Below are positions 14,074 to 42,520 of a DNA stretch of 64,000 bases, in pieces; within the stretch, counting starts at the first letter, position 1, and every line of letters starts with the position of its first letter. The position numbers and the translations under genes are program-made. The DNA is from an uncultured Chloroflexia bacterium (GTDB lineage Bacteria; Chloroflexota; Limnocylindria; QHBO01): the NCBI GenBank assembly GCA_963812115.1, contig CAWEUD010000005.1, positions 64,048 through 128,047 of the forward strand, read 5' to 3'. The notes beneath the pieces are model-generated. The model worked only from the letters and a program-made list of their open reading frames with translations, ran no database searches and had not been told where the DNA came from.

Positions 14074-15570
14074 TCAGGCTCCGAATGGGTTGACCGGCCT
14101 GGACCCGGTCCCGACCAGGATCGCCTTGGTCTCCGTGTAGAGCTCCAGCGCATCGAGCGACTGCTCGCGGCCGTAGCCGGACTCCTTGAAGCCACCGAAG
14201 GGAATGCCGGGGAAGGCCACGAACGGCGTGTTGATGCCGACCGCGCCCGAGCGGACGCGCTGCGCTACGCGGTGGCCGCGAGCCGTATCCCCGGTCCAGA
14301 CCGTGGCCGCCAGCCCGTAGCGGACGTCGTTGGCCCAGCGGATCGCCTCCGCCTCGTCGGCGAAGCGCTGCAGCGTGACGACCGGGCCGAAGACCTCCTC
14401 CTGGGCGATGCGCATCTCGTTCGCGACACCACCGATGACCGTCGGGCGCACGAACGCCTCCGCATCCAGGCCGTCGCCCAGGGTGTCGTCGACTGGACCA
14501 CCGGTCAACAGCTCGCCTCCCTCGTGCACCGCCGACTCGACGTAGCCGAGCACCCTGGCAGCGTGCTCCCTGCTGATCATGGAGCCGATCTGCGTCGTCT
14601 CTGCCAGCGGATCCCCCACACGAAGCGCCGCGGCCTTTTCGGTGAAGGCGCCGGCGAAGCGCTCGTACGCCTCGTCCTGCACCAGCAGACGGCTGCGGGC
14701 CTCGCACGACTGGCCCGCGGAGTAGTAGATGGCCCACAGGGAGCCAAGGACGGCAGCATCCAGGTCCGCGTCGGCGAAGACGATGTTCGGCGACTTTCCG
14801 CCGAGCTCGAGACTGACTCGCTTGAGACTGTCGGACGCGAGCGCGGCGATGCGCCTGCCGGTCTCGGTCTCGCCGGTGAATGCGACCTTGTCGACGCCGC
14901 GGTGCGCGGCAAGCGCCTCGCCCACCCCGGCACCGGGACCCGGGATGACGTTGAGCACCCCGGCCGGAATGCCCGCCTCGAGCGCGAGCTGGCCCAGCGC
15001 CAGCGCGGTCAGGGGCGTGGCCGATGCCGGCTTCAACACGAGCGCGTTGCCGGCGGCGAGCGCCGGCGCGACCTTCCAGATCGCCATCATCAGCGGGTAG
15101 TTCCACGGGATGATGGCCGCACAGACGCCGACCGGCTCGCGAAGCGAGTAGGTCACCACCGACGGGTTCACCACGTGCGAGCGGCCGTAGAGGAACTGAG
15201 CGGCACCGGCGAAGAGCTCGAGCGTGGCAACCCCGGTCTTGATCTCGGCCGCCGCCTGCCACGTCGGCTTGCCGTTGTTGCGCGACTCCAGCTCGGCCAG
15301 CTCGCCGGTCCGCTCGTCGAGCAGCTGGGCCAGGCGATTCAGCGCCCGAGCCCGCTTCGCCGGGCTCGTCTTCGCCCAGGCGCCGTCCAACGCTCCGCGG
15401 GCGGCTACCACCGCGGCGTCAACGTCCGCGCGGCTGGCCTGCGCCACCTCGGCCAGCGGATCGCCGGTGGCAGGGTTGCGAGTGGTGAAGGTGGCGCCCT
15501 CGGCGGCGTCCCGGAAGGTCCCGTCGATCAGGAGACGGGATTCGACGGAGATGGTGGCGGCTTCGCTCAT
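14074..15570 (-). CDS. NAD(P)-dependent aldehyde dehydrogenase
   Basis: 'IIPWNYP', 'LKPAS', 'FTGETETG', 'LELGGKSP', catalytic Cys 'GQSCEA', 'EEVFGPV', 'PFGGFKESGYGRE'. Confidence 0.95.
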   Translation of the reverse strand: MSEAATISVESRLLIDGTFRDAAEGATFTTRNPATGDPLAEVAQASRADVDAAVVAARGALDGAWAKTSPAKRARALNRLAQLLDERTGELAELESRNNGKPTWQAAAEIKTGVATLELFAGAAQFLYGRSHVVNPSVVTYSLREPVGVCAAIIPWNYPLMMAIWKVAPALAAGNALVLKPASATPLTALALGQLALEAGIPAGVLNVIPGPGAGVGEALAAHRGVDKVAFTGETETGRRIAALASDSLKRVSLELGGKSPNIVFADADLDAAVLGSLWAIYYSAGQSCEARSRLLVQDEAYERFAGAFTEKAAALRVGDPLAETTQIGSMISREHAARVLGYVESAVHEGGELLTGGPVDDTLGDGLDAEAFVRPTVIGGVANEMRIAQEEVFGPVVTLQRFADEAEAIRWANDVRYGLAATVWTGDTARGHRVAQRVRSGAVGINTPFVAFPGIPFGGFKESGYGREQSLDALELYTETKAILVGTGSRPVNPFGA

Positions 15571-22059: not shown

Positions 22060-23295
<1,236 letters not shown>

Positions 23296-23428
23296 CGTTC
23301 GGCCGATGCTAGCAGGGTGCGGTCGGACGGCCGTCCCCGCGCAGCGTCCTGCCAGCCACAGGAGGCTGAGGAGCCCGACTCCGGGAACCAGGATCATCAG
23401 CACGCCAGGAGCCGGTACGATCCGCGGC

Positions 23429-24868
23429 ATGGGCGCCCGCGCGGAGAGCCAGATTCCCGAGCCCGGCCGACGCCGCGGGTGGTGGCTGCGCGATGCGCTT
23501 GCCGCGGAGGGCGACCCCGCCCCGGCGCCGCCGCTGCGGGGTGACGAGCATGCCGACGTGGCGATCATCGGTGGTGGCTACACCGGCATGTGGACCGCCT
23601 ACTTCCTCGCGAAGCGCGCTCCCGGGACGCGCATCGTGCTCCTGGAGCAGGACATCTGTGGCGGCGGACCATCGGGCCGCAACGGCGGCTTCGTGCACGG
23701 CTGGTGGGAGGACCTCCCCTACCTGGTGGACCGATACGGGCGCGAGGCAGGCCTGGAGATCGCGCGCCAGGCGGACGAGGTCGTCGACGGCATCGGCGCA
23801 TGGTGCGCCGAGCACGATGTCGATGCGGGGTTCACGAAGGCCGGCTACCTGACCGTCAACGCCTTCCCCGGGCGTCCCAGCGCCTGGGGCCCCAGGGTGG
23901 CGAGGCTCTGGGAGCTGGGCGCCGCTGAGCACTTGCAGCCGCTCTCACCCGCCGAGGTGCAGCGGGTCTGCGCCTCCCCGGCCTTCGGCGACGGCCTGCT
24001 GATGCCGAGCGCCGCGTCGATCCAGCCGGCCCGGCTCGCACGCGGCTTGCGCCGCGTCCTGCTCGAGCAGGGCGTGGTGATCCACGAGGGCACCTCCGTC
24101 CACGGCCTGCGAGGGCGCGATGGCCGCGTGCGGGTCGAGACGCTGGCAGGCTCGGTGACGACGGACCAGGCCGTGCTCGCGGTCAACGCCTGGGCGGCGG
24201 GCTGGCCGGGCTTCCGGAGTCGCGTCCTCGCCTGGGGCAGCTACATGGTGATGACCGAGCCGATCCCCCGGCAGCTGGATGAGATCGGCTGGACCGGCGG
24301 CGAGCTGCTCAGCGACGACCGCTACACGATCAGCTACTTCCGGACCACCGCGGACGGCCGCATCGCGTTCGGTGCCGGCGTGGGCGCCGCCGGCTTTGGC
24401 GGGCGCATCGGCCCGGTCTTCACGCACGACCGCCGAGCGGTGCGGCGCGTGGTGGCGAATCTGGACCACCTGCTGCCGATGCTGCGCGAGGTGCGGCTGG
24501 AGGATGCCTGGGGCGGTCCCATCGATATCACCGGCGACCGCATGCCGGAGATCGGGAGCACGCAGCGCGGCCGACTCCACTTCGCCCACGGCTTTCGCAG
24601 GGAACGGTGCCGGGCCATCGCGCTTCGCGGGCCGTATCCTCGCCGCGCTGGTCGACCGGCCGGACGACCCACTGGCACGCCTGCCGATCGTCGGCCAGCC
24701 GACAGCCGCTGCTGCCGCCGGAGCCGGTCCGCTTCGCGGGCGGCCCGACTGGTGCGCGAGGCGCTCATCCGGCAGGACGACGCCTACGACGCGGGGCGCC
24801 GTCCGTCGCGCGTCCTGGACGCGATCGGTCGGCTGCCGTCCTTGCTCGGCTACCGCATCGGCCGCTGA
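23429..24868 (+). CDS. FAD-dependent oxidoreductase (PuuB/DAO family) with three +1 frameshifts near 24595, 24700 and 24743
   Basis: 'IIGGGYTG', 'GPSGRNGG', '[10 protein letters not shown]', 'WGGPID'; conserved '[10 protein letters not shown]' and 'PPEPVR' lie in other frames. Confidence 0.87.
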
Positions 24869-25122: not shown

Positions 25123-25773
25123 CTACGTCTCCGCCAGGAGCTCCTCCAGCGAGTCGATGATGCGGTCGGAGGCGGAGACATCGGTCTCGGCGAACTGCGG
25201 GACGGCGATGCAGGTCAGCCCCGCCGCCTTGGCGGCGGTCACGCCGCTCGCCGAGTCCTCCAGCGCGAGCGTATCCTCCGGCACCACGCCCAGCCGCTCG
25301 CAGGCGAGCAGGTAAAGGTCCGGCGCCGGCTTGGGGCGCGCGACATCGTCGGAGGTCACGATCACGTCGAAGGCGTCGCCGACGCGCGCAGTGGCCATGG
25401 CGGTGTCGACGAGCGCCCTCGGCGAGTTCGAGGCCAGTCCCAACCGGGTGTGGCCGCGCAGGCGTTCCACCAGCTCGAACGCGCCCGGCCGGCTCTCGAC
25501 CTGCTCGCGCAGGTGGCCGTGCATCAGGTCGATCATCTCGCGCACGAGGCCCGGTCCCTGGTCGTGCGGAACGCCAAGCCGATCCGCGAAGTAATCCGCG
25601 GTGAACGCGAAGCTGGTGCCGATGACGGTCATCTTGTCGTCCCAGGTGAATTCGGCTCCCCGGCGGGCGAAGAGCTCCACCTCGGCCTGATGCCAGAGGA
25701 TCTCGGTGTCCAGCAGCAGGCCGTCCATGTCGAAGATGACCGCGCGGAAGCGGTCGCGCAGCAGGTGGGTCAC
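25123..25773 (-). CDS. HAD-superfamily phosphatase (Cbby/beta-PGM-like)
   Basis: '[12 protein letters not shown]', 'LASNS', 'KPAPDLY', 'LEDSASG'; GTG start coupled to upstream stop. Confidence 0.92.
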
Positions 25774-27002
25774 ACGCTGACTGGGAAGAACGAGGCGTCG
25801 GCCTCGGCCAGGGATCGGAGCAGGGGCACGACCCGATAGCGTCCATCCGGGACGGCAGCCTGCAGCGCATCGAGCGTATGGACCACGTGGACCAGGCCGA
25901 TCCGCTCGCCCCACTCCAGCGGCCCTGACGGGTAGTTCATGCCGAGCCGCATGGCGGTGTCGACGGCGTCGGGGGAGGCGACACCATCCGCGACCGCCGA
26001 CGCGGCCTCGTTCACGATCGTTGCCAGGATTCGCGCGGCGATCTGCTGCTCGTCCAGTCGCTGCAGCGGCGGCCCGTCGGGCCTGCGTGAGAGCCCTGGC
26101 CAGGCGCGGCCGCGCGCACCGTCGGAACCGTAGTCGTAGAACCCTGCGCCGGCCTTGCGACCGAGGCGCCCGGCCGTCACCAGGCTGCGCTGCAGCGGGT
26201 GTGGTCGGTAGCGCGGGTCGTGGAAGAACTGGTCGAACACGCTCTGGCTGACCGCGAAGTTCACGTCCAGGCCGATGGTGTCGAGGAGCTCGAACGGTCC
26301 CATCCGGAAGCCGATGCCACGCATGGCGGCATCAACCGCCTCTACCTCGGCGGCCCCATCGCCGACGATGCGCAGCGCCTCGAGGTAGTAGGGCCGCGCG
26401 ACGCGGTTGACGATGAAGCCTGGCGTATCGGCTGCCAGCACCGGCGTCTTGCCGAGCCGCCGCGCAAGGCGGGCGACCGCATCGGTCACGGCGGGCTCCG
26501 TCATGGCGCCCGCCACCACCTCGACCAGGGGCATGAGCGGAACAGGGTTGAAGAAGTGCATGCCGACGACCCTGCCCGGCCGCTCGGTGGCGGCAGCGAT
26601 GGCACCGACAGACAGGCTGCTCGTATTGGTGGCAAGCACCGATTCCCGGCTCGTCGTCGCATCCAGCACGCGGAATGCCTCGCGCTTCAGCTCGAGCTCT
26701 TCCGGGATCGCCTCGATCACCACGTCCGCGTCGCTAGCCAGCTCCTCGAGGCTGCCCGTCGCATCGATGCAGGCCATGGCGGCCTCGCGCTGCTGCGCCG
26801 TCATCTGCTCCTTCTCGACCTTCCGCGCCAGGAACCGGCTGATTCGCTCGCGCGCCCGTTCCACCGCCCCGGGAACCGGATCGTGCAGGCGGACGTGGAG
26901 GCCGGCCTCTGCCGCCACCTGGACGATCCCGCTGCCCATCGTCCCGGCACCAAGTACCGAAACCCGCTCGACCGCCGCCAGCCGCTCTCCGTCAGCGGCC
27001 AA
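25770..27002 (-). CDS. paaH: 3-hydroxyacyl-CoA dehydrogenase (PaaH-like)
   Basis: '[11 protein letters not shown]', '[10 protein letters not shown]', 'ATNTSSLS', 'GMHFFNP', 'DTPGFIVNR'; TTG start inferred. Confidence 0.88.
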
Positions 27003-27777
27003 CGAAGCGCGGCTCCCGCTTCTCGCCGAAGGCCGCGATGCCCTCGGCATGGTCCTGCGTCCGGCCGGCCAGCTCCTGCAGCGCTGCCTCCGTCGCCAGG
27101 CTCTCGTCCAGCGATGCATCCTCCGCCTGGTTGATCAGGCGCTTGGCCAGCCCGAGTGCCTTCGTCGGCGCCGCGGCGAGCCGCTGGGCTGCCTCGGCGA
27201 CCGTTGCACGCAGCGCTGCTGCCGGGACGACCGCATTCACGAGCCCGCTCTCCCTCGCCTCCGCGGCGGTCAGCGGGTCCCCGCCGAAGATGAGCTGCGC
27301 CGCCCGATGGCGGCCGAGGGCGCGTACCAGCGTCCGCGTCGATCCGGAGTCGGGCACCAGGCCGATGCGCACGAAGGCCTGGATGAAGCGCGCCTCGTCA
27401 CTGGCATAGACAAGGTCGCAGGCCAGCGCCAGGCTGACGCCAGCGCCGGCGGCGACCCCGTTGACCGCGGCGACGACCGGTTTCGGCAGCTCCCTGATGG
27501 CCCTGACCAGCGGGTTGTATTCGGTAGCGAGGCGCGTGCGGAAGTCACGTTCATCCGGCCCGGCGCGCAGGTCGGCTCCCGAGCAGAACCCGCGTCCCTC
27601 GCCGGTCAGGACCACGGCGCGCACGGTCTCGTCGCGCGACAGCGCCTTGAAGGCGGCCAGCAGCTCGCGGCGCATCGTGACGTTCAAGGCATTCAGGGAG
27701 TCGGGCCGGTTGAGCACGATGGTGGCGACGCCATCGGCCACCTCGACGCGGATCGTCTCGTGGGCGGGTTCCGGCAT
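26992..27777 (-). CDS. paaG: Enoyl-CoA hydratase/isomerase (PaaG-like)
   Basis: '[14 protein letters not shown]', 'VNGVAAGAG', '[12 protein letters not shown]', '[14 protein letters not shown]'. Confidence 0.82.
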
Positions 27778-27848
27778 GCTGCCGATTCTAACCAGCGCGG
27801 CTGGCGCCAGCCAGGCTCCCATGACGCTTCATCACCGCCCATTGGCAC

Positions 27849-27912: not shown

Positions 27913-28299
27913 ATGGACCGTGCCGGAGTAGAACGCTGGATCGCCGCGTACCGCGCGGCGTGGCAGAGCGACTCGCCCGACGACGTTGCCGCACTCTTCA
28001 CCGAGGACGCGACCTACAAGCCGTACCCGTGGCGCCGCGAGGCGACCGGGTGGCAGGGGCGTGACGAGATCGTCGCCAAGTGGGTGGAGCGCGGCGACTC
28101 GAAGATCGGATGGCGCTTCGACCACGAGGTCCTGGCGGTGGATGGCGACACCGCGGTGGTCGAGGGCTGGACCTACTACGACCGTGGCGAGGGCGAGCCC
28201 TGGGACGAGGCGTATGCCAACGTCTGGCTGGTCCGGTTCGCCGATGACGGCCGGGCCCGCGAGTTCAAGGAATGGTGGGTCCAGAAGCCAACCGACTGA
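27913..28299 (+). CDS. NTF2/SnoaL-like protein
   Basis: 'W..AY..AW', 'LFTEDATY', 'GRDEIV..W', 'VDGDTAVVEG..Y', 'FKEWW'. Confidence 0.85.
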   Translation: MDRAGVERWIAAYRAAWQSDSPDDVAALFTEDATYKPYPWRREATGWQGRDEIVAKWVERGDSKIGWRFDHEVLAVDGDTAVVEGWTYYDRGEGEPWDEAYANVWLVRFADDGRAREFKEWWVQKPTD

Positions 28300-28882
28300 T
28301 GCCGCCTTCGCCGGCCATGGCCGCCGCTACGGCGCGGCGACTCGCCTCCCATTCGCCCGCCGGCACCTTGGGGAGCAGGTCGTCCCAGATGGCGAGCATG
28401 GCGCCCCGCATCTGCCACATCCCGAGCGGGCGGGCAAGGAACCAGACGTGGAAGTGGAAGCTGCCGTCGCCCCAGCGGTTGACGTGGACGCGGCCGACGG
28501 ACTCCAGGCGGCCGATGGCGCGGGCGACGCGCTGGATCATCGGCCCCAGCTCGGCAGACTCTCGGGCGGGAAGATCCTCCAGGTCGGCGTGCGCCTTGGG
28601 CTGCATCACCGCCACCATCGGGAGTCCATGAGGCTCCGGGTCCACCAGCAGGCGCCAGCGCTCGTCTTGCCAGGCGACGAACGCCTCGTCACCGCTGCCG
28701 TTGCATGATCGGCAATCGCGCTCCTCCACGCCGTGGCGCTCCGGCTCGGGGAGGATCGGCTCATGGAGCGGCTGCGTGGTGAACTCGCCCTCGAACGGAA
28801 AGAGCGGGTCGCGCACCACCTCGTCGGCCGGCAGCCGCTCCCCAATGGGAAGCCTCCGGAGGTACGCATCCGGCCCGTCCAT
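28265..28882 (-). CDS. HIT-like hydrolase
   Basis: CxxC 'CRSC', 'PKAHADL', HIT variant 'GDGSFHFHVWF'. Confidence 0.75.
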   Translation of the reverse strand: MDGPDAYLRRLPIGERLPADEVVRDPLFPFEGEFTTQPLHEPILPEPERHGVEERDCRSCNGSGDEAFVAWQDERWRLLVDPEPHGLPMVAVMQPKAHADLEDLPARESAELGPMIQRVARAIGRLESVGRVHVNRWGDGSFHFHVWFLARPLGMWQMRGAMLAIWDDLLPKVPAGEWEASRRAVAAAMAGEGGISRLASGPTIP

Positions 28883-28890
28883 CGGCCGCC

Positions 28891-29676
28891 TCAGCGGCCC
28901 GTGAAGTCGGGCTCGCGCTTCTCCATGAAGGCCGCCATTCCCTCCTTCTGGTCCTCGCTGGCGAAGAGCAGGTAGAAGAGTCGGCGCTCGTGGGCCAGCG
29001 CATCGGTCAGGTTCATCTCGTACGCGGCGTTGACGGCCTCCTTGGCCACGCGCAGGGCGATCGGCGACTTGGTGGCAATCTCGGCGGCAAGCACGAGGGC
29101 ATCCTCGACCACTAGCTCGTCCGGCACCACGCGAGCCACGAGGCCTCGATCGGCCGCCTCCCGGGCGGCCATCGGGTCGCCGGTGAGGACCATCTCCATG
29201 GCGCGGCTCTTGCCGATGGCACGGGTCAGCCGCTGCGTCCCGCCCGCGCCGGGGATGACGCCGATGTTGATCTCCGGCTGCCCGAATTTCGCGTTCTCCC
29301 CCGCAAGGATGAGGTCGAGCGTCATGGCCAGCTCGCAGCCTCCACCCAGGCACCAGCCGTTCACCGCGGCGATGACCGGTTTCGTTATGCGCCGAATCCG
29401 GTCCCACTGGGCGATCCGGTTGGTTCGGAGCATGTCGATGGGGGTCGCCTCTGCCATCTCACCGATGTCCGCCCCGGCGGCGAAGGCGCGCTCGCTGCCA
29501 GTGACGACGATGGCGCGAACGGCCTCGTCGCGGTCGAGCTCTTCGAGCGCCTCGCAGAGGGCGTCCATGGTCGCGCCGTTGAGGGCGTTGAGCTGCTTCG
29601 GCCGGTTGAGGCGGACCAGGGCCGTCCGCTGCTCCGCCTGCCGCTCGACGAGGACGAGCTGCTCCGCAGCCGTCAC
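28891..29676 (-). CDS. paaF: Enoyl-CoA hydratase (PaaF-like)
   Basis: 'TGSERAFAAGADI', 'GGGCELAM', 'FGQPEINIGVIPGAGGTQRL', 'EDQKEGMAAFMEKR'. Confidence 0.88.
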   Translation of the reverse strand: MTAAEQLVLVERQAEQRTALVRLNRPKQLNALNGATMDALCEALEELDRDEAVRAIVVTGSERAFAAGADIGEMAEATPIDMLRTNRIAQWDRIRRITKPVIAAVNGWCLGGGCELAMTLDLILAGENAKFGQPEINIGVIPGAGGTQRLTRAIGKSRAMEMVLTGDPMAAREAADRGLVARVVPDELVVEDALVLAAEIATKSPIALRVAKEAVNAAYEMNLTDALAHERRLFYLLFASEDQKEGMAAFMEKREPDFTGR

Positions 29677-30632
29677 GGCTCCGCACGCTCCCACGCATCG
29701 GTCAGGGGCGAGCCGCAGACGCCGCAGAAACCATGTCCCGCCGGAAGGCCCGAGGCGCCGCACCGCCCACACGTCCGCGGCGAGACCGCCATTTCACGCA
29801 GGGCGTCGTAGCGGGGCTCGCGCTTCTCGTGGAACGCGTCCACCGCCTCCTTCGTCTCGTCGGAGGTCGAGTGGATCGCCAGCCAGTCGCGCGCGTGCGT
29901 GACCGTCTGGGACCAGACCAGGTCGCGCCACCAGTTGAGCTGCGCCTTCGTGTAGCGGATCGTCTCCGGCAGCTTGCGCCGGAGGTTGTCGGCCAGGTCG
30001 GCCACGGTGGCGTCGAGCTTGGCGCGCGGGACGACCCGCGAGACCAACCCCCAGTCGAGCGCCTGCTGGGGGGAGATCCGGTCGCAGAGCATGACGATCT
30101 CTCGCGCCCGCCGGTCGCCAACCACCAGCGGTAGCCACTGCGTCGCGCCGCCGGCCGGGACCGACCCGTGCTCGGGCCCGACGTGGCGGATGTAGGTGTC
30201 GTCGACCATCACCGACAGGTCACAGGCCAGCTGCAGCTCCTGGCCGCCACCCACCGCTACGCCGTTAATGCGCGCGATGGTGGGCTTTCCGATGTGGCGC
30301 AGCCGATCGTGCATCTCGATGAAGGCGCCCATCCAGCGCCAGTACTGTCCCGAATGGGTTCCCATGCGGGCCTGCTCGTCCAGGTCCGCACCGGTGCAGA
30401 AGGCGCGATCACCGGCACCGGTCACGACCACCACGGCGACAGCGTCGTCCCAGCTGGCGTCCTCGAAGGCCTGCGCCAGCTCGCGAAGGGTCGTGAAGTC
30501 GAAGGCGTTGAGCACCTCGGGCCGGTCGATCGCCACGGTCGCCACGGCGGCCGCAGAATCCTTTCGGTACCTGATGCGCTCGAATCCGAAGGCCGAAGGA
30601 TCCCGTGGCGTGGGGACCGATGGCTCAGGCAT
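29673..30632 (-). CDS. Crotonase-family ring-opening hydrolase (Oah/BadI/MenB-like) with C-terminal zinc ribbon
   Basis: 'FCTGAD', 'GGGQELQLACD', 'GPEHGSVPAGGAT', 'HARDWLAI'; tail CGRC-x11-CGVC. Confidence 0.78.
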   Translation of the reverse strand: MPEPSVPTPRDPSAFGFERIRYRKDSAAAVATVAIDRPEVLNAFDFTTLRELAQAFEDASWDDAVAVVVVTGAGDRAFCTGADLDEQARMGTHSGQYWRWMGAFIEMHDRLRHIGKPTIARINGVAVGGGQELQLACDLSVMVDDTYIRHVGPEHGSVPAGGATQWLPLVVGDRRAREIVMLCDRISPQQALDWGLVSRVVPRAKLDATVADLADNLRRKLPETIRYTKAQLNWWRDLVWSQTVTHARDWLAIHSTSDETKEAVDAFHEKREPRYDALREMAVSPRTCGRCGASGLPAGHGFCGVCGSPLTDAWERAEP

Positions 30633-30954
30633 CCCCTCGGGCCTCCAGCGGGGAATCGTCGTCGACGATCAGCATGTTCACGCCGGCGCCCGCGAAGTTG
30701 CGCAGGTCGCGGCCGCTCTCCATCCCCGCCTCGGAAGCGAGCGCGGCATCCAGGTCGGCGCGCGAGTCGAAGGCCATCTCCGCCACCAGGTAGTAGGGCG
30801 ACGGGCGACCAGCCACGCCATCGGCCTTCGTCAGGCGCAGCTCGCGAAGCTGCGGGTAGCGACGGACGATCGGTGCGTGGACCTCGCGGTAGTGCCGGTC
30901 GAAGGCCTCGGGATCCTCGGGTTGGCTGAAGAGCGCGATGAAGCGAGCTGCCAC
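30625..30954 (-). CDS. EthD-family protein
   Basis: 'PEDPEAFDRHYREVHAP', 'YLVAEMAFDS'. Confidence 0.85.
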   Translation of the reverse strand: MAARFIALFSQPEDPEAFDRHYREVHAPIVRRYPQLRELRLTKADGVAGRPSPYYLVAEMAFDSRADLDAALASEAGMESGRDLRNFAGAGVNMLIVDDDSPLEARGDA

Positions 30955-30955
30955 G

Positions 30956-31201
<246 letters not shown>

Positions 31202-36936: not shown

Positions 36937-39018
36937 TCAGTTGCCGCGGTCGGTCCCGGCGATGCTCGACAGGGCTTTGAGCGCGGCCTCCTGCAGGTGC
37001 GGTTCGGGATCGGCAGCAGCGAGACGGCTCAGCAGTCCCGGCAGATCGCCGAGCTCCGCTGCCACGTCGGGGTCGTCACCAGCGCTCCGCTGCGCAGCCA
37101 GCAGCAGCTCCAGGAGGTCGGATCGTCCACGAACCCTGGCATCCACCACCATGCGACGCACGAATCGCAGGACGGGGGCAGTGGCGGGGTAGATCGACCC
37201 GCCGTGAAGGACGGACTCGGTGAGCAACTGCCGCCCATCGGCTCGCAAGCGCTCGTCATCCGCCAGGAGCGTTCGCAGGTGCATCGGCGTGTCGATCGCC
37301 CGGCCATAGGCGTGACTGAGCGCGCGCCAGTCGACGTTGGCGAGATCCCCGAGCAGTTCCTCGACCAGCCGGGTCGGCTCCGACAGGAACCGCTCGCGCC
37401 GCGCCGAGAGCGCCACCTCATCGGGTTGTGCGTCGGATGGGAGACTGTCACGCGCGCTCTCGATCGCCCCCACGATCGCGCGGGCCACCGGATTCGCCGG
37501 TCCCAGCATGCGCTCGGTGAGCTGCTCGATCCGTGTCGCCGTGGCGCGTCCCCCCGCCGGGCCGTACTCGCGCAGCTCCTGCCAGTACTGCTCTCCCAGG
37601 GCCTGGACCGCAAGGGGGTGCCCGCGGCCGTAGGCGCCGGCCAGGATCGCGGTGATTCGCTCGAGGATGGGCAGCACCTCCGCCTCTGTGCCCGCCAGCC
37701 GCAGGATGAGCCGCAGGCGCCGCAACGGCTCGACCAGTTCGGTGCTGTCGGTCCCGAACGCGGAATCGAGAAGACCGATGGCTTCGCGCACACGATCCTG
37801 CGCCGTCACCAGGTTTCCGGTCACGAACGCGGCGTCCGCTTCGTGCAGGAGGGATTCGGCGCGCGCGCGGGCAACCGGCTGCCCGCTCTCGGGTGCGCGG
37901 CGCGCAGCGAACCGGCGAGCGATGGTGCGCAGCTGCTCCGCGGCCTCGTCGCGAGTGAGCTGTGCATCGCTGAAGAATGGCGGCGCGAGGTCCGGCCGCA
38001 GGGTGAGGATCGGCAGGTAGATGGCCGTCGCCTCCGCCACTGCGTCTCCGTCCGTCCCGTGCTGCCCCTCCGAGGCGAGTTTGCTGAAGACCGTCACGAG
38101 CGCCAGTGCGGCATCAACCGTCTCGCGGTGATCCGGGCCGAGCTCGTCGATGCGGATGAGGAACGTCCGTTCGAACGCCTCCCGCGCATCCGCGTAGCGG
38201 CCCTCCGCGAAGGCGAGGTTCCCGATGGCTTCCAGGACGACCGCCGTCCAGCGGCTCATTGGGCCGAAATGGCGCTCGTGGAGGGTCAGCGCCCGCTCGA
38301 GCATCGGCCTTGCGCGATCCGGCTGACCCATGTTGACGTACGACATCCCCACGTTCGCCAGCAGCCGTCCCACGAGATCGCTCTCCGGCCCGATGCCCAG
38401 CTCGGCGGCCGTCAGGGCGCGCTCGTACAACGCCCGTGCCCGTTCACCGCCGTCCGGCAGCGCCGCGACCTTGACCGCCAGGGCGTTCAGCGTCTCGGCC
38501 GTGCGCCGATGGCCTTCGCCAAGTGCACGTTCGCATCGGCGCAGGGATTCCTCGTGGAGGGCGATGGCCTCCTCGTGCCGGCCGGAGCGCCACATGGCCA
38601 CCGCAACGTTGTTGAGGCTCTCGATCGCATCCTCGTCGTCCGGCCCCAGCGCTGCCGCTCGCAGGTCGTACGAGCGTCGCAAGGTTCGCTCCGCCTCGTC
38701 GAGTCGGCCGGCGGTGATCTGGAGCACCCCGAGCAGGTTCAGGGAGCTGCCGAGCGAGGCATCATCGCTGCCCTCCTCATCGGCGCGAACCGCTTCCTCG
38801 GCCAGCGACCATGCGGTGGCCACGTCTCCGATGACGTAGTGGCACTCACCCATCAGCTGTGCCGCCTGCCCAATCTGCTCGGGGCGCCCGGACGCCCGTG
38901 CGGACGCAAGGATTGGCTCGGCAAGGACCATGGCCGAGCGGGGGTCCCCGCCGTCCAGGCGGCGCCGCGCTTCATCGAGGAGTGAAGCGTTCCCGCTCAC
39001 GCGCGGTGTCCCGTCCAC
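36937..39018 (-). CDS. Tetratricopeptide-repeat protein with C-terminal HAYG/HEAT-like module
   Basis: Repeated ~42-aa units 'SLNLLGVL', 'SLNNVAVA', 'TLNALAV', 'LLANVG', 'VLEAIGNL' with 'LGP.(D/H)' spacers; C-term 'VDWRALSHAYG..DTP'. Confidence 0.85.
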   Translation of the reverse strand: MDGTPRVSGNASLLDEARRRLDGGDPRSAMVLAEPILASARASGRPEQIGQAAQLMGECHYVIGDVATAWSLAEEAVRADEEGSDDASLGSSLNLLGVLQITAGRLDEAERTLRRSYDLRAAALGPDDEDAIESLNNVAVAMWRSGRHEEAIALHEESLRRCERALGEGHRRTAETLNALAVKVAALPDGGERARALYERALTAAELGIGPESDLVGRLLANVGMSYVNMGQPDRARPMLERALTLHERHFGPMSRWTAVVLEAIGNLAFAEGRYADAREAFERTFLIRIDELGPDHRETVDAALALVTVFSKLASEGQHGTDGDAVAEATAIYLPILTLRPDLAPPFFSDAQLTRDEAAEQLRTIARRFAARRAPESGQPVARARAESLLHEADAAFVTGNLVTAQDRVREAIGLLDSAFGTDSTELVEPLRRLRLILRLAGTEAEVLPILERITAILAGAYGRGHPLAVQALGEQYWQELREYGPAGGRATATRIEQLTERMLGPANPVARAIVGAIESARDSLPSDAQPDEVALSARRERFLSEPTRLVEELLGDLANVDWRALSHAYGRAIDTPMHLRTLLADDERLRADGRQLLTESVLHGGSIYPATAPVLRFVRRMVVDARVRGRSDLLELLLAAQRSAGDDPDVAAELGDLPGLLSRLAAADPEPHLQEAALKALSSIAGTDRGN

Positions 39019-39033
39019 GTCGGCCGGCTTTCC

Positions 39034-39660
39034 TTAGCCGGTCTCCCCGGGGTCCCCGGCGACGGCCATCTGCCCACCGGTGGCGATTCCCGTCTCCCGA
39101 TGGTAGGGCGCCGTGGCCGCATCGTTCATCTCGAAGCGGGATGGCGGCGCGGCATCCGCCAGCTGCTCGACCTCCTCGTGGGTCAGCTCGTAGCCGTAGC
39201 GGATGGCGGCGACGTTTTCGTCCTGGAAGCGGCGGGGCAGCGACTCGCGGATGGCGGCCTCGTGGAACTCGATCTCGGCGAGGCGGAGCAGACGCCCCAG
39301 GGCGATCATGTTGCCGAACAGCTCCTTGCCGAACTTCTCGCTGCCGAGCGAAGCGAAGGGAATCTGCTCCGCACCCGGGACGTTGAGGCCGAGGTCGGTG
39401 ATGACCACCTTGCCGTGGATGCGCATGTGCCCCTTGTCGGCGAGCTTGAGCATGATGTCCGCCTCCTCGACCACCGGGTTGAGGATGGGTTCGTCGTCGA
39501 AGATCACGAACGCGTCGGACATGCTGCCGCGCACGCTCGAGTCGTAGTCGAAGAGGACCGTCACCTCCTTGCCCATGCGCGCCAGCAGTGCCCCGAGCAC
39601 GCCCGCGATGACGCGGACCCCCTGGCCGCCAACCCCATCTAGGGCAATTCGCGTGACCAT
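39034..39660 (-). CDS. korC: 2-oxoacid:ferredoxin oxidoreductase gamma subunit
   Basis: 'IALDGVGGQGV', 'YDSSVRGSMS..V', 'GNMIALG'. Confidence 0.85.
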   Translation of the reverse strand: MVTRIALDGVGGQGVRVIAGVLGALLARMGKEVTVLFDYDSSVRGSMSDAFVIFDDEPILNPVVEEADIMLKLADKGHMRIHGKVVITDLGLNVPGAEQIPFASLGSEKFGKELFGNMIALGRLLRLAEIEFHEAAIRESLPRRFQDENVAAIRYGYELTHEEVEQLADAAPPSRFEMNDAATAPYHRETGIATGGQMAVAGDPGETG

Positions 39661-39662
39661 GG

Positions 39663-41084
39663 CTAGGCGGATGCCTCCGGGTCCACGCCCGCCTCGCGAA
39701 GGGCTTCCTCGAGGCTGATCTCGCGCTTCGCGACGCGCAGCTTCAGCTCCGACGGCAGCCCCTGCATCAGCGCCAGCTTGCGCTGTGATTCGGCCTTGCG
39801 CTGCTCCTTCGGATCGAGGTCCGCCGGCGCTGCATCCCCGCTCGAGAGCGGCCGTGCCGGTTGTGCGCTGCCGGTCTCCTCGACGGCAGCCTCGGCCTTC
39901 TGCGCCGAAAGGTCGTCGGGTTGGTGCTGGGTCCGTGGATCGCGGCCGCTCTCGCTGATCACGACGTCGCCGGCGGCGACCGGAGCGCCGGCAGGCGCGC
40001 TGGCCCCGGTACGCAGCCACTCGGGGATCTGGATCCCGGCGCTGGCAAGCGCCTCGAGCAGGGTGAGCTCCTTGCGGGCGACCTGCATCTTCACGTCCGC
40101 GGAGAGCTGGCCCATCAGCTTGGCCCGCTCCTGCGACTCGGCGCGGCGGTGTGCCTTCTCGTCGTCGTCGGCCATGGGCGCCTTGGCGGTCGCACCGGCG
40201 GCACCGGGCGACTCGGTGGCCGATGCCATCGGTCCAGTCGGCTGCGCCGGCAGGTCATCGGGACGTGCGGGAGCCGATGTCGTGCTGGACCCGTTGCCGT
40301 TCGTGGATCCCGCGGCGCCATCGGCCTTCGGGTAGAGGACGCCGATCTCGAACGGGTTGAGGCGCTCGGCATCCTTCGCGGCGCGCTTGTAGGTCTTGCG
40401 GTAGAAGGTGAGCATCTCGTTGGCGCTGGCGAAGCCGATGCGCCGGCCGTTGTTCTCGATGCACTGGCTGGTGATGTCCACGAAGCTGAAGCCGTCGTGC
40501 TCAACCGCCTCGCGAATCACGTTGCGCATGTGCTGCTGGTGGTACACCGTCGTCTTGGCGTAGAGCGAATGCGGCGACGAGCGCACCAGGCCCTGGAGGT
40601 TGATGGGCGTATTCGGGTTGCCGGCCGGGCTGGAGAGCGTCTTGGTGCCCGACGGCGTGGTCGGACCGGTCTGGCCGCCGGTGAGCCCGTAGATCTCGTT
40701 GTTGTTGCAGAGCACCGTCAGGCGGGCGTTGCGGCGGATGGCGTGGATGAGGTGGTTGCCGCCGATGCTGGCCGTGTCCCCGTCCCCTGAGACCACGATC
40801 ACATGCATCTCCGGGCGCACCGTCTTGATCGCCTCGGCGACCGGCAGCGTCCTGCCGTGCAGCGTGTAGACGCTCTCGTACTTCATGTAGCTGCCCATGC
40901 GCCCGGTGCAGCCGATGCCGGTCACGACGATGGTGTTCGTCTCGTCCATGCCCATCTCCTCGAGCACCATCGCCAGCTGGATCATGATCGTGCCGATGCC
41001 GCAGCCCGGGCACCAGATGGTCGGGAAGAGGTCGACCTTCAGGTTGTTCTTGAACCCCATCTCGGCCATCACCGCCTCGGGCAT
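39663..41084 (-). CDS. korB: 2-oxoacid:ferredoxin oxidoreductase beta subunit with ~200-aa C-terminal extension
   Basis: 'WCPGCG', 'GIGCTGR', 'HGRTLP', TPP motif 'GDGDTASIGGNH..NNEIYGLTGGQ', 'SQC'. Confidence 0.9.
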   Translation of the reverse strand: MPEAVMAEMGFKNNLKVDLFPTIWCPGCGIGTIMIQLAMVLEEMGMDETNTIVVTGIGCTGRMGSYMKYESVYTLHGRTLPVAEAIKTVRPEMHVIVVSGDGDTASIGGNHLIHAIRRNARLTVLCNNNEIYGLTGGQTGPTTPSGTKTLSSPAGNPNTPINLQGLVRSSPHSLYAKTTVYHQQHMRNVIREAVEHDGFSFVDITSQCIENNGRRIGFASANEMLTFYRKTYKRAAKDAERLNPFEIGVLYPKADGAAGSTNGNGSSTTSAPARPDDLPAQPTGPMASATESPGAAGATAKAPMADDDEKAHRRAESQERAKLMGQLSADVKMQVARKELTLLEALASAGIQIPEWLRTGASAPAGAPVAAGDVVISESGRDPRTQHQPDDLSAQKAEAAVEETGSAQPARPLSSGDAAPADLDPKEQRKAESQRKLALMQGLPSELKLRVAKREISLEEALREAGVDPEASA

Positions 41085-42224
41085 CAGCCGATCCCCAAGG
41101 GCGAGCGAGGCACGGCCGCGACAGGCGGTGCCGGAATCGGCGGCTCGGAGGGCCCGCCCGACAGGACGCGCTCCAGGCCGTCGCGGACCGCTTCGAGCGA
41201 TACCCGCCCACCGAGCAGCGGAACGCGCTTGACCTCGCGGCCGAGGGCCAGCTGCGCCATGTCGGCGTACTGGCCGTCGTTCGCCTCGACGCAGACGATC
41301 TGCTCGTACCGGTCGGCGATCTCCTTCAGCTCGTCGGAAAGCATGGGATGGATTCGGATCGGCCGGAAGAGCGCGTACTCGCTGGCCAGCGGAGCCGCCA
41401 CGCGGCTGACGATCCCGTAGGCGATCATCAGGGTCTTGGCATCCACGTTCCAGCCGTGCTCGTAGAACGCGTAGCGCTTCGCGACTTCGGCGTGCCGGTG
41501 CTTGGCGGCGTAGAACTGGCGCAGGTACTCGTCGGCGTCGGCGGTCGCGGGCTCGCCGGCGTTCGGGCCCGTGCTCGTACATCAGCACGCCGGCGAAGAA
41601 GCGCGGCTTCCCCGGCTCGTGCTTTCCCAGCGGCGGGATGCTGCGCTCGACCACGCGGAGGCCATCGCGGAGCTCATCGAGGTCCACCACCTCGTTGAGG
41701 TGGCCGACGAACGTGTCGGTCAGGACGACGACCGGGCTGCGCGACTCCTCGGCCGCGTTGAAGGCCTCGACGGTGATGCGGAAGGCCTCCGCCACGCCGT
41801 TCGGGTAGAAGGCGAGCGGACTGTAGTCGCCGGTGCTGCCGTACCTGACCTGCATGATGTCGCCCTGGCCCGGCATCGTCGGCATGCCAGTCGCCGGACC
41901 CACGCGCTGCACGTTTACGAACACGGTCGGGATGCCAACCTTCTGCCCGTAGCCGACCGCCTCCTGCATCAGGCTGAAGCCCGGGCCGCTGGTGGCGGTG
42001 AAGGATTTTGCGCCCGCGAGCGAGGCGCCCATGATCGCGTTCGCGCTGGCGATCTCGTCCTCCTCCTGGAGGAAGCGGAACTCGGGGTGCTCACTGGCCC
42101 AGCCGGAGGCGACGTTCAGGATCTCGGTGGACGGAGAGATGGGATAGCCGGCGTAGTAGCTGGCCCCTGCCGCGACCGCTCCGCGGAAGACGGCTTCATT
42201 ACCCTGGGTCAGCTTCCGCGTCAT
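41084..42224 (-). CDS. korA: 2-oxoacid:ferredoxin oxidoreductase alpha subunit, frameshifted near 41567
   Basis: 'GNEA', 'GYPISPSTE', 'QEEDEIA', 'ATSGPGFSLMQE', 'RVGPATGMPT'; C-half 'IAYGIVSR', 'VEANDGQY' in the +1 frame. Confidence 0.9.
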
Positions 42225-42520
42225 TCGGCCTTCCCCTTGGCCTCGTGGGCGGCGACCGCCGAGGGAATCATTTCGATGGCGAGGTCCGGGCAGTAGCGCT
42301 CGCAGAGGCCGCAGAGGATGCAGTTCTGCTCCTCGATGATGGCGTCGTTGCGCAGGACGAGGGTGTCCTTCGGACAGATCTCGACGCAGATGTCGCACCG
42401 CTTGCAGAAGACGGGGTTCCAGCTGATGTTGGCGTAGTCAACCCAGCGAATGCCGTCCTTGTGGTCGTCGGAGATGCTGGAGCCGAAGCCGATGGCCCCC
42501 GAAGCTCGGTCTCGTGTCAT
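42221..42520 (-). CDS. korD: 2x[4Fe-4S] ferredoxin-like delta subunit
   Basis: 'CKRCDICVEICP', 'CILCGLCERYCPDLAI'; ATGA overlap with korA. Confidence 0.87.
   Translation of the reverse strand: MTRDRASGAIGFGSSISDDHKDGIRWVDYANISWNPVFCKRCDICVEICPKDTLVLRNDAIIEEQNCILCGLCERYCPDLAIEMIPSAVAAHEAKGKAE

Follow-up and report, generated by a model that had tools for sequence, protein, structure and literature searches.

CroZn, as we call it here, is a 319-aa protein (P0001) in which a crotonase related to the ring-opening hydrolase Oah is joined to a C-terminal zinc ribbon. Its gene, recognised as an open reading frame (ORF) and from its translation, lies at 29673..30632 on the minus strand of the window, that is, the whole 64,000-nt stretch of DNA that was analysed (contig CAWEUD010000005.1, from an uncultured Chloroflexia bacterium). 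By its sequence, CroZn is assigned to a sister group of Oah that is undescribed, bears the ribbon and falls in the MenB/BadI/Oah branch of the crotonase superfamily. In this lineage it is a constant part of a phenylacetyl-CoA (paa) catabolon lacking PaaZ, and in this genome the catabolon has no PaaK or PaaE either. The crotonase or hydratase activities of the paa route are those of the isomerase PaaG, the hydratase PaaF and the opening of oxepin-CoA's ring by hydrolysis, the last of which is normally the task of the MaoC domain of PaaZ. We propose, with about even confidence, that CroZn is an Oah-derived oxepin-CoA hydrolase that would open the ring in this PaaZ-less pathway.

All motifs that the earlier note had read from the letters are present in the ORF, namely GGGQE (residues 128–132), GPEHGSVPAGGAT (residues 152–164), ARDWLAI (residues 247–253) and, in frame with them, CGRC-x11-CGVC (C288, C291, C303 and C306; window 29771-29715). 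The crotonase domain was delimited to residues 27–276 (29805..30554, minus strand) by Pfam, motif comparison and the AlphaFold2 (AF2) model, and its match to ECH_1 (PF00378; 191 bits against a gathering cut-off of 27, E=3e-56) places the protein in the crotonase superfamily. Comparison with the motifs of Oah, MenB, BadI and enoyl-CoA hydratase (ECH) pointed to Glu132 (30237-30239, minus strand) as the presumed catalytic residue, and residues 152–157 form the GPEHGS loop. After a Y-x-x-LR motif common to Oah, the alignments define a linker of residues 277–287 (29772..29804, minus strand), which among the relatives of CroZn has 0 to about 25 additional residues, often with W/Y-G-P. The linker leads to the Cys4 zinc ribbon of residues 288–310 (29703..29771, minus strand), which was recognised from its invariant cysteines, weak Pfam matches and the AF2 model; four of the seven cysteines of the protein stand within the last 32 residues. 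The AF2 model reached a mean pLDDT of 84.7 with MenB as the best PDB fold match, and the fold search carried out with it returned only crotonases over at most 272 aligned columns, hence it was uninformative on the ribbon. On the upstream side the ATG of CroZn overlaps the stop codon of an EthD gene (ATGCCTGA), and on the downstream side its TGA shares nucleotides with the GTG start codon of the crotonase gene that follows, ECH2 (GTGA), which indicates translational coupling in both directions.

In the NCBIfam comparisons P0001 stayed far below the cut-offs for MenB (TIGR01929 and NF005637, 179 and 184 bits against 343 and 380), BadI (TIGR03210, 178 against 468), Oah (TIGR03200, 138 against 464, with only model positions 39–216 of 360 aligned) and the alternative oxepin-CoA hydrolase (NF046063, 118 against 300), and its fold differs from that of PaaZ (TIGR02278), an aldehyde dehydrogenase fused to a MaoC hot-dog domain. 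The best solved-structure matches were MenB enzymes (PDB 2uzf and 4els, 33–37% identity, E = 9e-47). The earlier note gives the Oah motifs correctly, since P0259, a bona fide Oah (TIGR03200, 630 bits against 464) and the only one recovered among the representatives, reads GGGQE, GPKHGSAPIGGAT and SRSWLAL; it ends in ...LRQKLAAGQSWVGPLHDS... and has no Cys4 motif. The active-site set of Oah (GGGQE, GPKHGS..GGAT, SRSWLAL) is matched in CroZn by GGGQE, GPEHGSVPAGGAT and ARDWLAI, and a column-by-column comparison revealed that the Glu of GGGxE, GS-x-[PA]-x-GGATQ and [AS]R[DS]WLA are common to Oah and all ribbon crotonases. At the corresponding columns MenB and BadI read GGG[HN]V, carry the catalytic Asp within GS-x-D and have a Tyr on their C-terminal helix; in CroZn, Pro159 replaces the Asp and His254-Ser255 the Tyr. 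The insert of 45–55 residues that Oah carries between the VVP strand and the next helix is absent from P0001, and a shorter insert of this type was found in the ribbon-bearing proteins P0123 and P0128.

In a maximum-likelihood tree of 45 sequences the ribbon crotonases and Oah formed one clade (99/99) apart from MenB/BadI and generic ECH, and the clade persisted (94/99.8) when the tree was rerun without every column beyond residue 278. Thus, the suggestion that the protein is closer to Oah than to ordinary ECH agrees both with the shared signatures and with the tail-less tree, and clustering with MenB or with generic ECH, named in advance as the outcome that would speak against it, was not observed. 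P0001 belongs to a 20-sequence subclade (100/99) that also includes nested ribbon-less proteins of Actinomycetota and Planctomycetota, and the gains and losses of the ribbon on the tree take a minimum of three state changes. Canonical Oah itself may be one more ribbon-less offshoot of a larger ribbon-bearing family, as judged from a small tree with weak deep nodes (81–82). Identity with MenB or BadI was ruled out by the cut-offs, the active-site residues and the tree. A true Oah that has acquired a ribbon was ruled out as well, for P0259 is ribbon-less and the 360-position TIGR03200 model stops short of the ribbon site. As the earlier note had supposed, no Oah, BadI or MenB enzyme with a zinc ribbon was found among the PDB chains, the NCBIfam models or the literature; the literature search found the pairing of the crotonase superfamily with a zinc ribbon for AccD only, and no link between Oah and zinc. 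The ribbon subfamily is large, conserved and described in no library or paper.

The ribbon follows the consensus R-x-C-x2-C-G-x2-G-L-P-x4-[FY]-C-x2-C-G-x2-L, which is a short zinc_ribbon_2/DZR pattern (PF13240/PF12773), and the tail of CroZn shows the spacing expected of a zinc ribbon, with two CxxC knuckles within the range of 8–16 residues from each other that are conserved across homologues. The Pfam matches were sub-threshold (DZR 15.1 bits against 27.3, E=0.026; Zn_Ribbon_1 11.4 against 25, E=0.29); short motifs frequently score under the gathering threshold. A word-indexed search yielded more than 100 CroZn clusters of 76–97% identity, nearly all of 315–330 aa, from Limnocylindria/Chloroflexota assemblies. 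Across 18 homologues from this identity range the four cysteines, G292 and G307 do not vary, and neither do the cysteines in 46 homologues of 55–97% identity. An exhaustive search of 1.8 billion representatives added full-length relatives of only 33–60% identity that still terminate in the ribbon (e.g. P0121, P0123, P0128, P0130, P0137, P0139, P0141, P0151, P0167 and P0176); in 11 relatives of this range the four cysteines are among only 30 invariant columns despite the differing length and sequence of the linker. Among 80 related loci of species-representative genomes the ribbon was present in 69, and the exceptions were three contig ends or frameshifts and eight loci of Actinomycetota and Planctomycetota that genuinely lack it.

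The earlier note had reserved the possibility that close homologues would lack the ribbon and that the fusion would be a lost stop codon. The first half of this was borne out, as the orthologues of Actinomycetota and Planctomycetota, at 62–66% identity to CroZn, are ribbon-less; the second was not, since they represent, on the tree, nested secondary losses (at least two inside the paa clade), and a fusion artefact was ruled out by the length and the Cys4 motif, which independent assemblies preserve in more than 100 clusters. A split-off ribbon gene was looked for in the ribbon-less loci and none was found. Since the ribbon was lost at least twice in the paa clade without a separate ribbon gene taking its place, it appears dispensable for catalysis. 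AF2 models it at a pLDDT of about 82–89 as a short beta hairpin following the last helix, and none of the solved crotonase structures in the fold search covers such an element. By analogy, it is most likely a non-catalytic, Zn-stapled structural or docking knob, because DUF35-type ribbons and the stacked PaaF-PaaG disc complex provide precedents for a docking or stabilising role; metal binding and docking are both inferred.

The genes around CroZn, all on the minus strand unless stated otherwise, form an operon headed by a gene for a 7Fe-type ferredoxin (30956..31198; Pfam Fer4 families), the ORF of which is open to 31309 with the likely start MTYVIAEPC... It is followed by a 109-aa EthD-family protein (30625..30954; Pfam EthD 8.6e-13, TIGR02118 86 bits against 30.5), CroZn, and ECH2 (28891..29676), a canonical two-Glu, PaaF-like enoyl-CoA hydratase (NCBIfam PaaF 329 bits, cut-off 371; PRK05862 345 bits). 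Of 81 loci, 53 have EthD as the immediate upstream neighbour of CroZn, and nearly all have ECH2 directly downstream, while the ferredoxin upstream of EthD is conserved in the Limnocylindria loci and absent from most ribbon-bearing loci elsewhere. Next comes a conserved 192-aa ORF (28265-28843) without any family match, which has an HFHVW motif (HIT-like?) and a CRSC motif and orthologues of which were seen in some related loci, and then, in gene order, a SnoaL gene on the opposite strand. ECH3 (26992..27822) is a PaaG-like, isomerase-type crotonase with GLVPDSG (TIGR02280 PaaG 266 bits, cut-off 345); it also gave the highest score in this genome on NF046063, the model of the alternative oxepin-CoA hydrolase (217 bits against 300). 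The PaaH-like 3-hydroxyacyl-CoA dehydrogenase, in which the C-terminal domain is doubled (25770..27119 as maximal ORF, start probably near 26980), exceeds the cut-off of PRK08268 (509.9 against 508 bits) and scores 436 bits on PaaH. A HAD-family hydrolase (25123-25914, HxpB/beta-PGM-like; Pfam HAD families) lies directly after it, as in most Limnocylindria loci, and is an odd partner for a CoA-ester pathway. A PaaJ/PcaF-like 3-oxoadipyl-CoA thiolase (22060..23568 as maximal ORF; TIGR02430 567 bits, cut-off 597), syntenic in relatives, follows downstream.

Clustering of all ORFs of the 80 loci gave the conserved order [ferredoxin]-EthD-CroZn-PaaF-like-PaaG-like-PaaH-like-(HAD)-PaaJ-like, which spans Chloroflexota, Armatimonadota, Melainabacteria-like metagenome-assembled genomes (MAGs), Thermomicrobiales and Actinomycetota. 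In four Actinomycetota loci the order is thiolase-aldehyde dehydrogenase-EthD-crotonase (without ribbon)-ECH-ECH, with paaABCD 6–8 kb away. The aldehyde dehydrogenase at 14074..15570 (minus strand), detected by tblastn and Pfam, is the best orthologue in the CroZn genome (54% identity) of the one standing directly upstream of EthD-crotonase in the Actinomycetota paa clusters. In NCBIfam it is generic, BADH/HpaE/StyD-like with no model over cut-off, and a PacL-type identity for the cluster enzyme was unsupported.

The genome that contains the window is a 2.16-Mb MAG of 79% completeness. It carries paaA, paaB, paaC and paaD on contig C20 (47.7-50.5 kb), and no paaE lies beside them. No MaoC domain scored over cut-off anywhere in this genome and PaaZ was likewise absent, neither tblastn from a divergent PaaK-like query nor TIGR02155 detected a PaaK-type ligase in it or in eight genomes of the family to which it belongs, and the 79%-complete MAG contained no homologue of the HGD-D/BcrBC type (benzoyl-CoA reductase). 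There is no Had-type dehydrogenase in the CroZn operon, and the partnership with Dch, Had and benzoyl-CoA reductase that is typical of Oah was not seen. When 201 evenly sampled Chloroflexota genomes were examined, counting matches of at least 410 bits as orthologues, CroZn was detected in 18 genomes, all of which had PaaA/C, compared with 47 of the 183 genomes without CroZn (Fisher p = 2e-10, which overstates independence, as only about five independent families are involved). PaaA/C was also present in 23 of 26 orthologue-bearing genomes of other lineages. Over both sets, 41 of 44 orthologue genomes have paaA/C and 43 of 44 lack PaaZ, which scored over cut-off in none of the 201 Chloroflexota genomes and in one of the 26 others. 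More distant ribbon crotonases were not found in the other PaaA-positive Chloroflexota, as the scores fall from at least 410 to at most 257 bits and no match of the latter kind reaches the ribbon. The alternative oxepin-CoA hydrolase NF046063 was absent from all 201 genomes; since neither it nor PaaZ occurs there, their complementarity with CroZn is uninformative in Chloroflexota.

The conserved gene set includes exactly three crotonases, two of them clearly PaaF-like and PaaG-like and the third being CroZn. We suggest the oxepin-CoA hydrolase function for CroZn because three crotonases match three jobs and because CroZn is kin to a ring-opening hydrolase. The same count (PaaF, PaaG and a hydrolase) is found in the PaaZ-less pathway of Paraburkholderia, where a crotonase takes the ring-opening role according to fitness data (PMC9007349), and the PaaZ of many bacteria is described as nothing more than an aldehyde dehydrogenase, with no known enzyme for the opening of the ring (PMC4498308). 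According to this proposal Glu132 of GGGQE would activate a water molecule, which would add to the beta-carbon of the enoyl-thioester of oxepin-CoA bound in the usual crotonase oxyanion hole. The product would be passed on by the aldehyde dehydrogenase and the adjacently encoded PaaJ-, PaaG-, PaaF- and PaaH-like enzymes. Stacked crotonase discs are known from the phenylacetate pathway (the PaaF-PaaG dodecamer), and the ribbon may help a CroZn disc to join PaaF/PaaG-like discs or some other partner, so handing on the reactive semialdehyde. The earlier note had expected a new subfamily of cyclic beta-ketoacyl-CoA hydrolases: a conserved ribbon subfamily does exist, but its suggested substrates, 6-oxocyclohex-1-ene-1-carbonyl-CoA and 2-ketocyclohexanecarboxyl-CoA, gained no support from the paa gene set and from a genome with no BcrB/C-like homologue. 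The Oah/BadI substrate class is probably wrong for the CroZn clade, which belongs to the phenylacetate catabolon instead.

Several observations weigh against CroZn as the oxepin-CoA hydrolase. The absences of PaaK, PaaZ and benzoyl-CoA reductase in its own genome are provisional because the MAG is 79% complete. The 47 PaaA/C-positive Chloroflexota genomes without CroZn also lack PaaZ and NF046063, so another ring-opening solution must exist and the argument by elimination is weak. One of the orthologue-bearing genomes (G211, locus L055) has a PaaZ-type gene (613 bits, cut by the contig end), the only such case. A genome of the same class as that of the window (G124, locus L105) combines EthD-PaaF-like-X265-PaaG-like genes and paaABCD with no CroZn. 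ECH3, with its 217 bits on NF046063, could itself hydrolyse oxepin-CoA, either unaided or as an additional activity, and the generic aldehyde dehydrogenase linked to the cluster could be a phenylacetaldehyde rather than a semialdehyde dehydrogenase. Within CroZn itself, Glu154 of the GPEHGS loop is unconserved beyond Limnocylindria, and the AF2 model, being a monomer, is silent on docking.

Two of these genomes deserve a few words of their own. G211 is a fragmented MAG with three separate PaaA/C loci, which points to two paa systems or a mixed bin. In G124, EthD (L105:19410-19754) accompanies the PaaF/PaaG-like genes even though CroZn is missing, and the 265-aa protein X265 (L105:17691-18485), encoded between the PaaF-like and PaaG-like genes, gave no match in Pfam, NCBIfam or PDB apart from a weak one to DUF1444; it may be a non-orthologous replacement.

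If ring opening is the work of ECH3 or of another protein, CroZn would take some other crotonase step of the pathway, such as a hydratase or isomerase reaction on dehydrosuberyl- or dehydroadipyl-CoA or an alternative isomerisation of the epoxide to oxepin. We regard this as improbable, though it deserves to be kept in view: ECH3 is the best match of the genome to the alternative oxepin-CoA hydrolase (217 bits) and also matches PaaG (266 bits), and both G124, which runs a paaABCD set without CroZn, and the 47 PaaA/C-positive genomes devoid of it indicate that the pathway can operate in its absence. However, PaaF-like and PaaG-like enzymes already serve the known hydratase and isomerase steps, the closest characterised kin of CroZn on the tree are ring-opening enzymes and not isomerases, and CroZn retains the hydratase-type Glu of GGGxE, which is missing in PaaG-type isomerases. 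Alternatively, CroZn might be a C-C hydrolase of the retro-Claisen (Oah/BadI) type that salvages the paa shunt product 2-hydroxycyclohepta-1,4,6-triene-1-carboxyl-CoA. This compound arises when the ring-opened semialdehyde cyclises spontaneously, and it is the enol form of a cyclic beta-ketoacyl-CoA; its reopening by CroZn would give a linear C8 dicarboxyl-CoA fit for beta-oxidation. Such a shunt product is chemically of the kind that Oah and BadI accept, CroZn is related to Oah, and the link to paaA/C with PaaFGHJ-like neighbours would be explained equally well; moreover, E. coli depends on a dedicated enzyme, PaaY, against this inhibitor, and neither PaaY nor PaaI was seen in the CroZn cluster. 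Nevertheless, salvage appears quite unlikely to us, as genomes that have neither PaaZ nor NF046063 would then have no protein assigned to the essential hydrolysis of oxepin-CoA, the tight translational coupling in the core operon favours a main-line over a salvage enzyme, and an activity of this type is undescribed.

CroZn might also be a true hydrolase of the Oah/BadI type that serves an alicyclic or dearomatised benzoyl-CoA route and acts on 6-oxocyclohex-1-ene-1-carbonyl-CoA or 2-ketocyclohexanecarboxyl-CoA. It has motifs and clade in common with Oah, and other ribbon members do adjoin genes for a Had-like Zn-dependent alcohol dehydrogenase (Zn-ADH), a Dch-like ECH and HGD-D/BcrBC-like proteins. 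For CroZn itself we hold this identity to be the least probable of those considered, since the Oah model reached only 138 of the 464 bits over the N-terminal half and CroZn lacks the Oah insert, HGD-D/BcrBC homologues are missing from the genome and a Had-type dehydrogenase from the operon, and the CroZn clade follows paaA/C across phyla. A further alternative concerns the tail only, in which the ribbon would bind nucleic acid for autoregulation, or iron in a rubredoxin-like centre communicating with the adjacent ferredoxin. The spacer between the Cys knuckles of rubredoxin is of roughly 29 residues. The ribbon of CroZn is unlike this, being C-terminal and of the short zinc_ribbon_2/DZR type with an 11-residue spacer; although a ferredoxin heads the operon in Limnocylindria, it is missing from most ribbon-bearing loci outside that class. 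A nucleic-acid role could be modelled on AccD, the only member of the crotonase superfamily for which a zinc ribbon has been published and whose Cys4 zinc finger binds the mRNA of AccD itself (PMC2831308), but no conserved basic patch was evident in the tail alignments. Such roles of the tail seem very unlikely as a whole, and an AccD-like function would be less likely than docking or stabilising.

Taking the module together, ferredoxin-EthD-CroZn might represent a distinct and widespread version of the aerobic phenylacetate pathway, although we consider it rather improbable that all four of its parts hold together. An Oah-derived crotonase would stand in place of the hydratase domain of PaaZ, and the ferredoxin would replace PaaE as the electron donor of PaaABC; the nearby 2-oxoacid:ferredoxin oxidoreductase could feed this ferredoxin, make phenylacetyl-CoA and so replace PaaK. 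EthD would handle the labile enol or aldehyde product, and the zinc ribbon would plug CroZn onto the PaaF/PaaG-like discs or the aldehyde dehydrogenase, whereby the self-cyclising semialdehyde would be channelled as inside the PaaZ fusion. The oxidoreductase in question has four subunits and is encoded at 36937-42398 of the window, 6–10 kb upstream of the CroZn operon; both it and the ferredoxin (30956-31198) are syntenic in a related locus (L006). One idea is that it is a phenylpyruvate:ferredoxin oxidoreductase, which would yield phenylacetyl-CoA directly and whose reduced ferredoxin would feed PaaABC. As for EthD, it could act as an enol/aldehyde tautomerase or, by analogy with the eth cluster, assist a ferredoxin-dependent oxygenase.

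Further crotonases with the ribbon stand in ring-processing settings of other kinds. The nearest outgroup, P0123, combines the ribbon with an Oah-type insert and is encoded in the order CroZn-short-chain dehydrogenase (SDR)-Zn-ADH-HGD-D (BcrB/C-like) at L102:4924-9981, a cluster of the dearomatising type in which the ribbon hydrolase stands where canonical Oah would. These neighbours (SDR, Zn-ADH, HGD-D) suggest that the family does ring-opening-type jobs elsewhere as well. P0141 follows a PaaK-like ligase in the order CroZn-Zn-ADH-ECH-MBL-SDR, and P0167 lies in the context CroZn-ECH-BKACE-CoA transferase. P0176 (L012:6508-8969, GCA_900102195.1), a ribbon crotonase without the Glu of GGGxE, comes after a P450 and a small ferredoxin; its surroundings, with a Baeyer–Villiger monooxygenase, CoA ligases, acyl-CoA dehydrogenase pairs and an SCP-x-type thiolase, have the look of terpenoid or steroid breakdown.

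Which enzyme opens the ring in bacteria that have no PaaZ, or a PaaZ that is only an aldehyde dehydrogenase, is an open question in the literature (PMC4498308; PMC9007349), and the prior answer is genetic only and concerns one crotonase of the Burkholderiales type. CroZn is a second concrete candidate, phylogenetically unrelated to the first and present in at least six phylum-level lineages of mostly uncultured soil and freshwater bacteria. Proteins of the CroZn type are currently annotated as "enoyl-CoA hydratase/isomerase family protein", therefore pathway-gap tools would score phenylacetate catabolism as incomplete there. The results also suggest recent common ancestry between Oah, a ring hydrolase that serves the anaerobic benzoyl-CoA route, and one component of the aerobic "hybrid" route for phenylacetate.

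Among the known systems, Oah/BamA (TIGR03200, e.g. P0259) shares with CroZn the crotonase fold, the GGGQE, GP[KE]HGS..GGAT and [AS]R[DS]WLA motifs, a ...LR...G..W.GP stretch after the last helix, and membership of the same clade. Its chemistry, which converts 6-oxocyclohex-1-ene-1-carbonyl-CoA into 3-hydroxypimelyl-CoA, starts with the hydration of a cyclic enoyl-CoA, as proposed for CroZn. In contrast to CroZn, Oah has the insert of 45–55 residues after the VVP strand and no Cys4 ribbon, and it occurs with Dch, Had and benzoyl-CoA reductase whereas CroZn occurs with paa genes. MenB and BadI belong to the same wider branch of the superfamily and have the same spacing of the GP-x-x-GS loop, but they differ in GGG[HN]V without Glu, the Asp of GS-x-D and the C-terminal Tyr, form a separate clade and have no ribbon. 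With the hydratase domain of PaaZ and with NF046063, CroZn has in common the proposed opening of oxepin-CoA and its place in the paa gene set. PaaZ, however, is a MaoC hot-dog domain fused to an aldehyde dehydrogenase. The NF046063 proteins, of which H281DRAFT_04594 from Paraburkholderia bryophila sets the precedent for a crotonase doing this job in a PaaZ-less pathway (PMC9007349), are PaaG-like, ribbon-less and devoid of the ECH Glu residues.

For the ribbon, two comparisons can be made. AccD, the beta subunit of the acetyl-CoA carboxylase carboxyltransferase, resembles CroZn in that it, too, belongs to the crotonase superfamily and carries a Cys4 zinc ribbon (PMC2831308); its ribbon, however, stands at the N-terminus and binds nucleic acid, its activity is that of a carboxyltransferase, and there is no sequence kinship to the tail of CroZn. 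The rubredoxin-like ribbons of the DUF35/ChsH2 type are comparable as small Cys4 modules on or beside an acyl-CoA hydratase with a known role in holding partners together, the examples being the thiolase/HMG-CoA synthase scaffold, Ltp2-ChsH2 and Shy-Sal (PMC11321319). In DUF35 proteins an OB fold lies beside the ribbon and the partners have the thiolase fold, whereas CroZn carries a bare ribbon of 23 residues on a crotonase.

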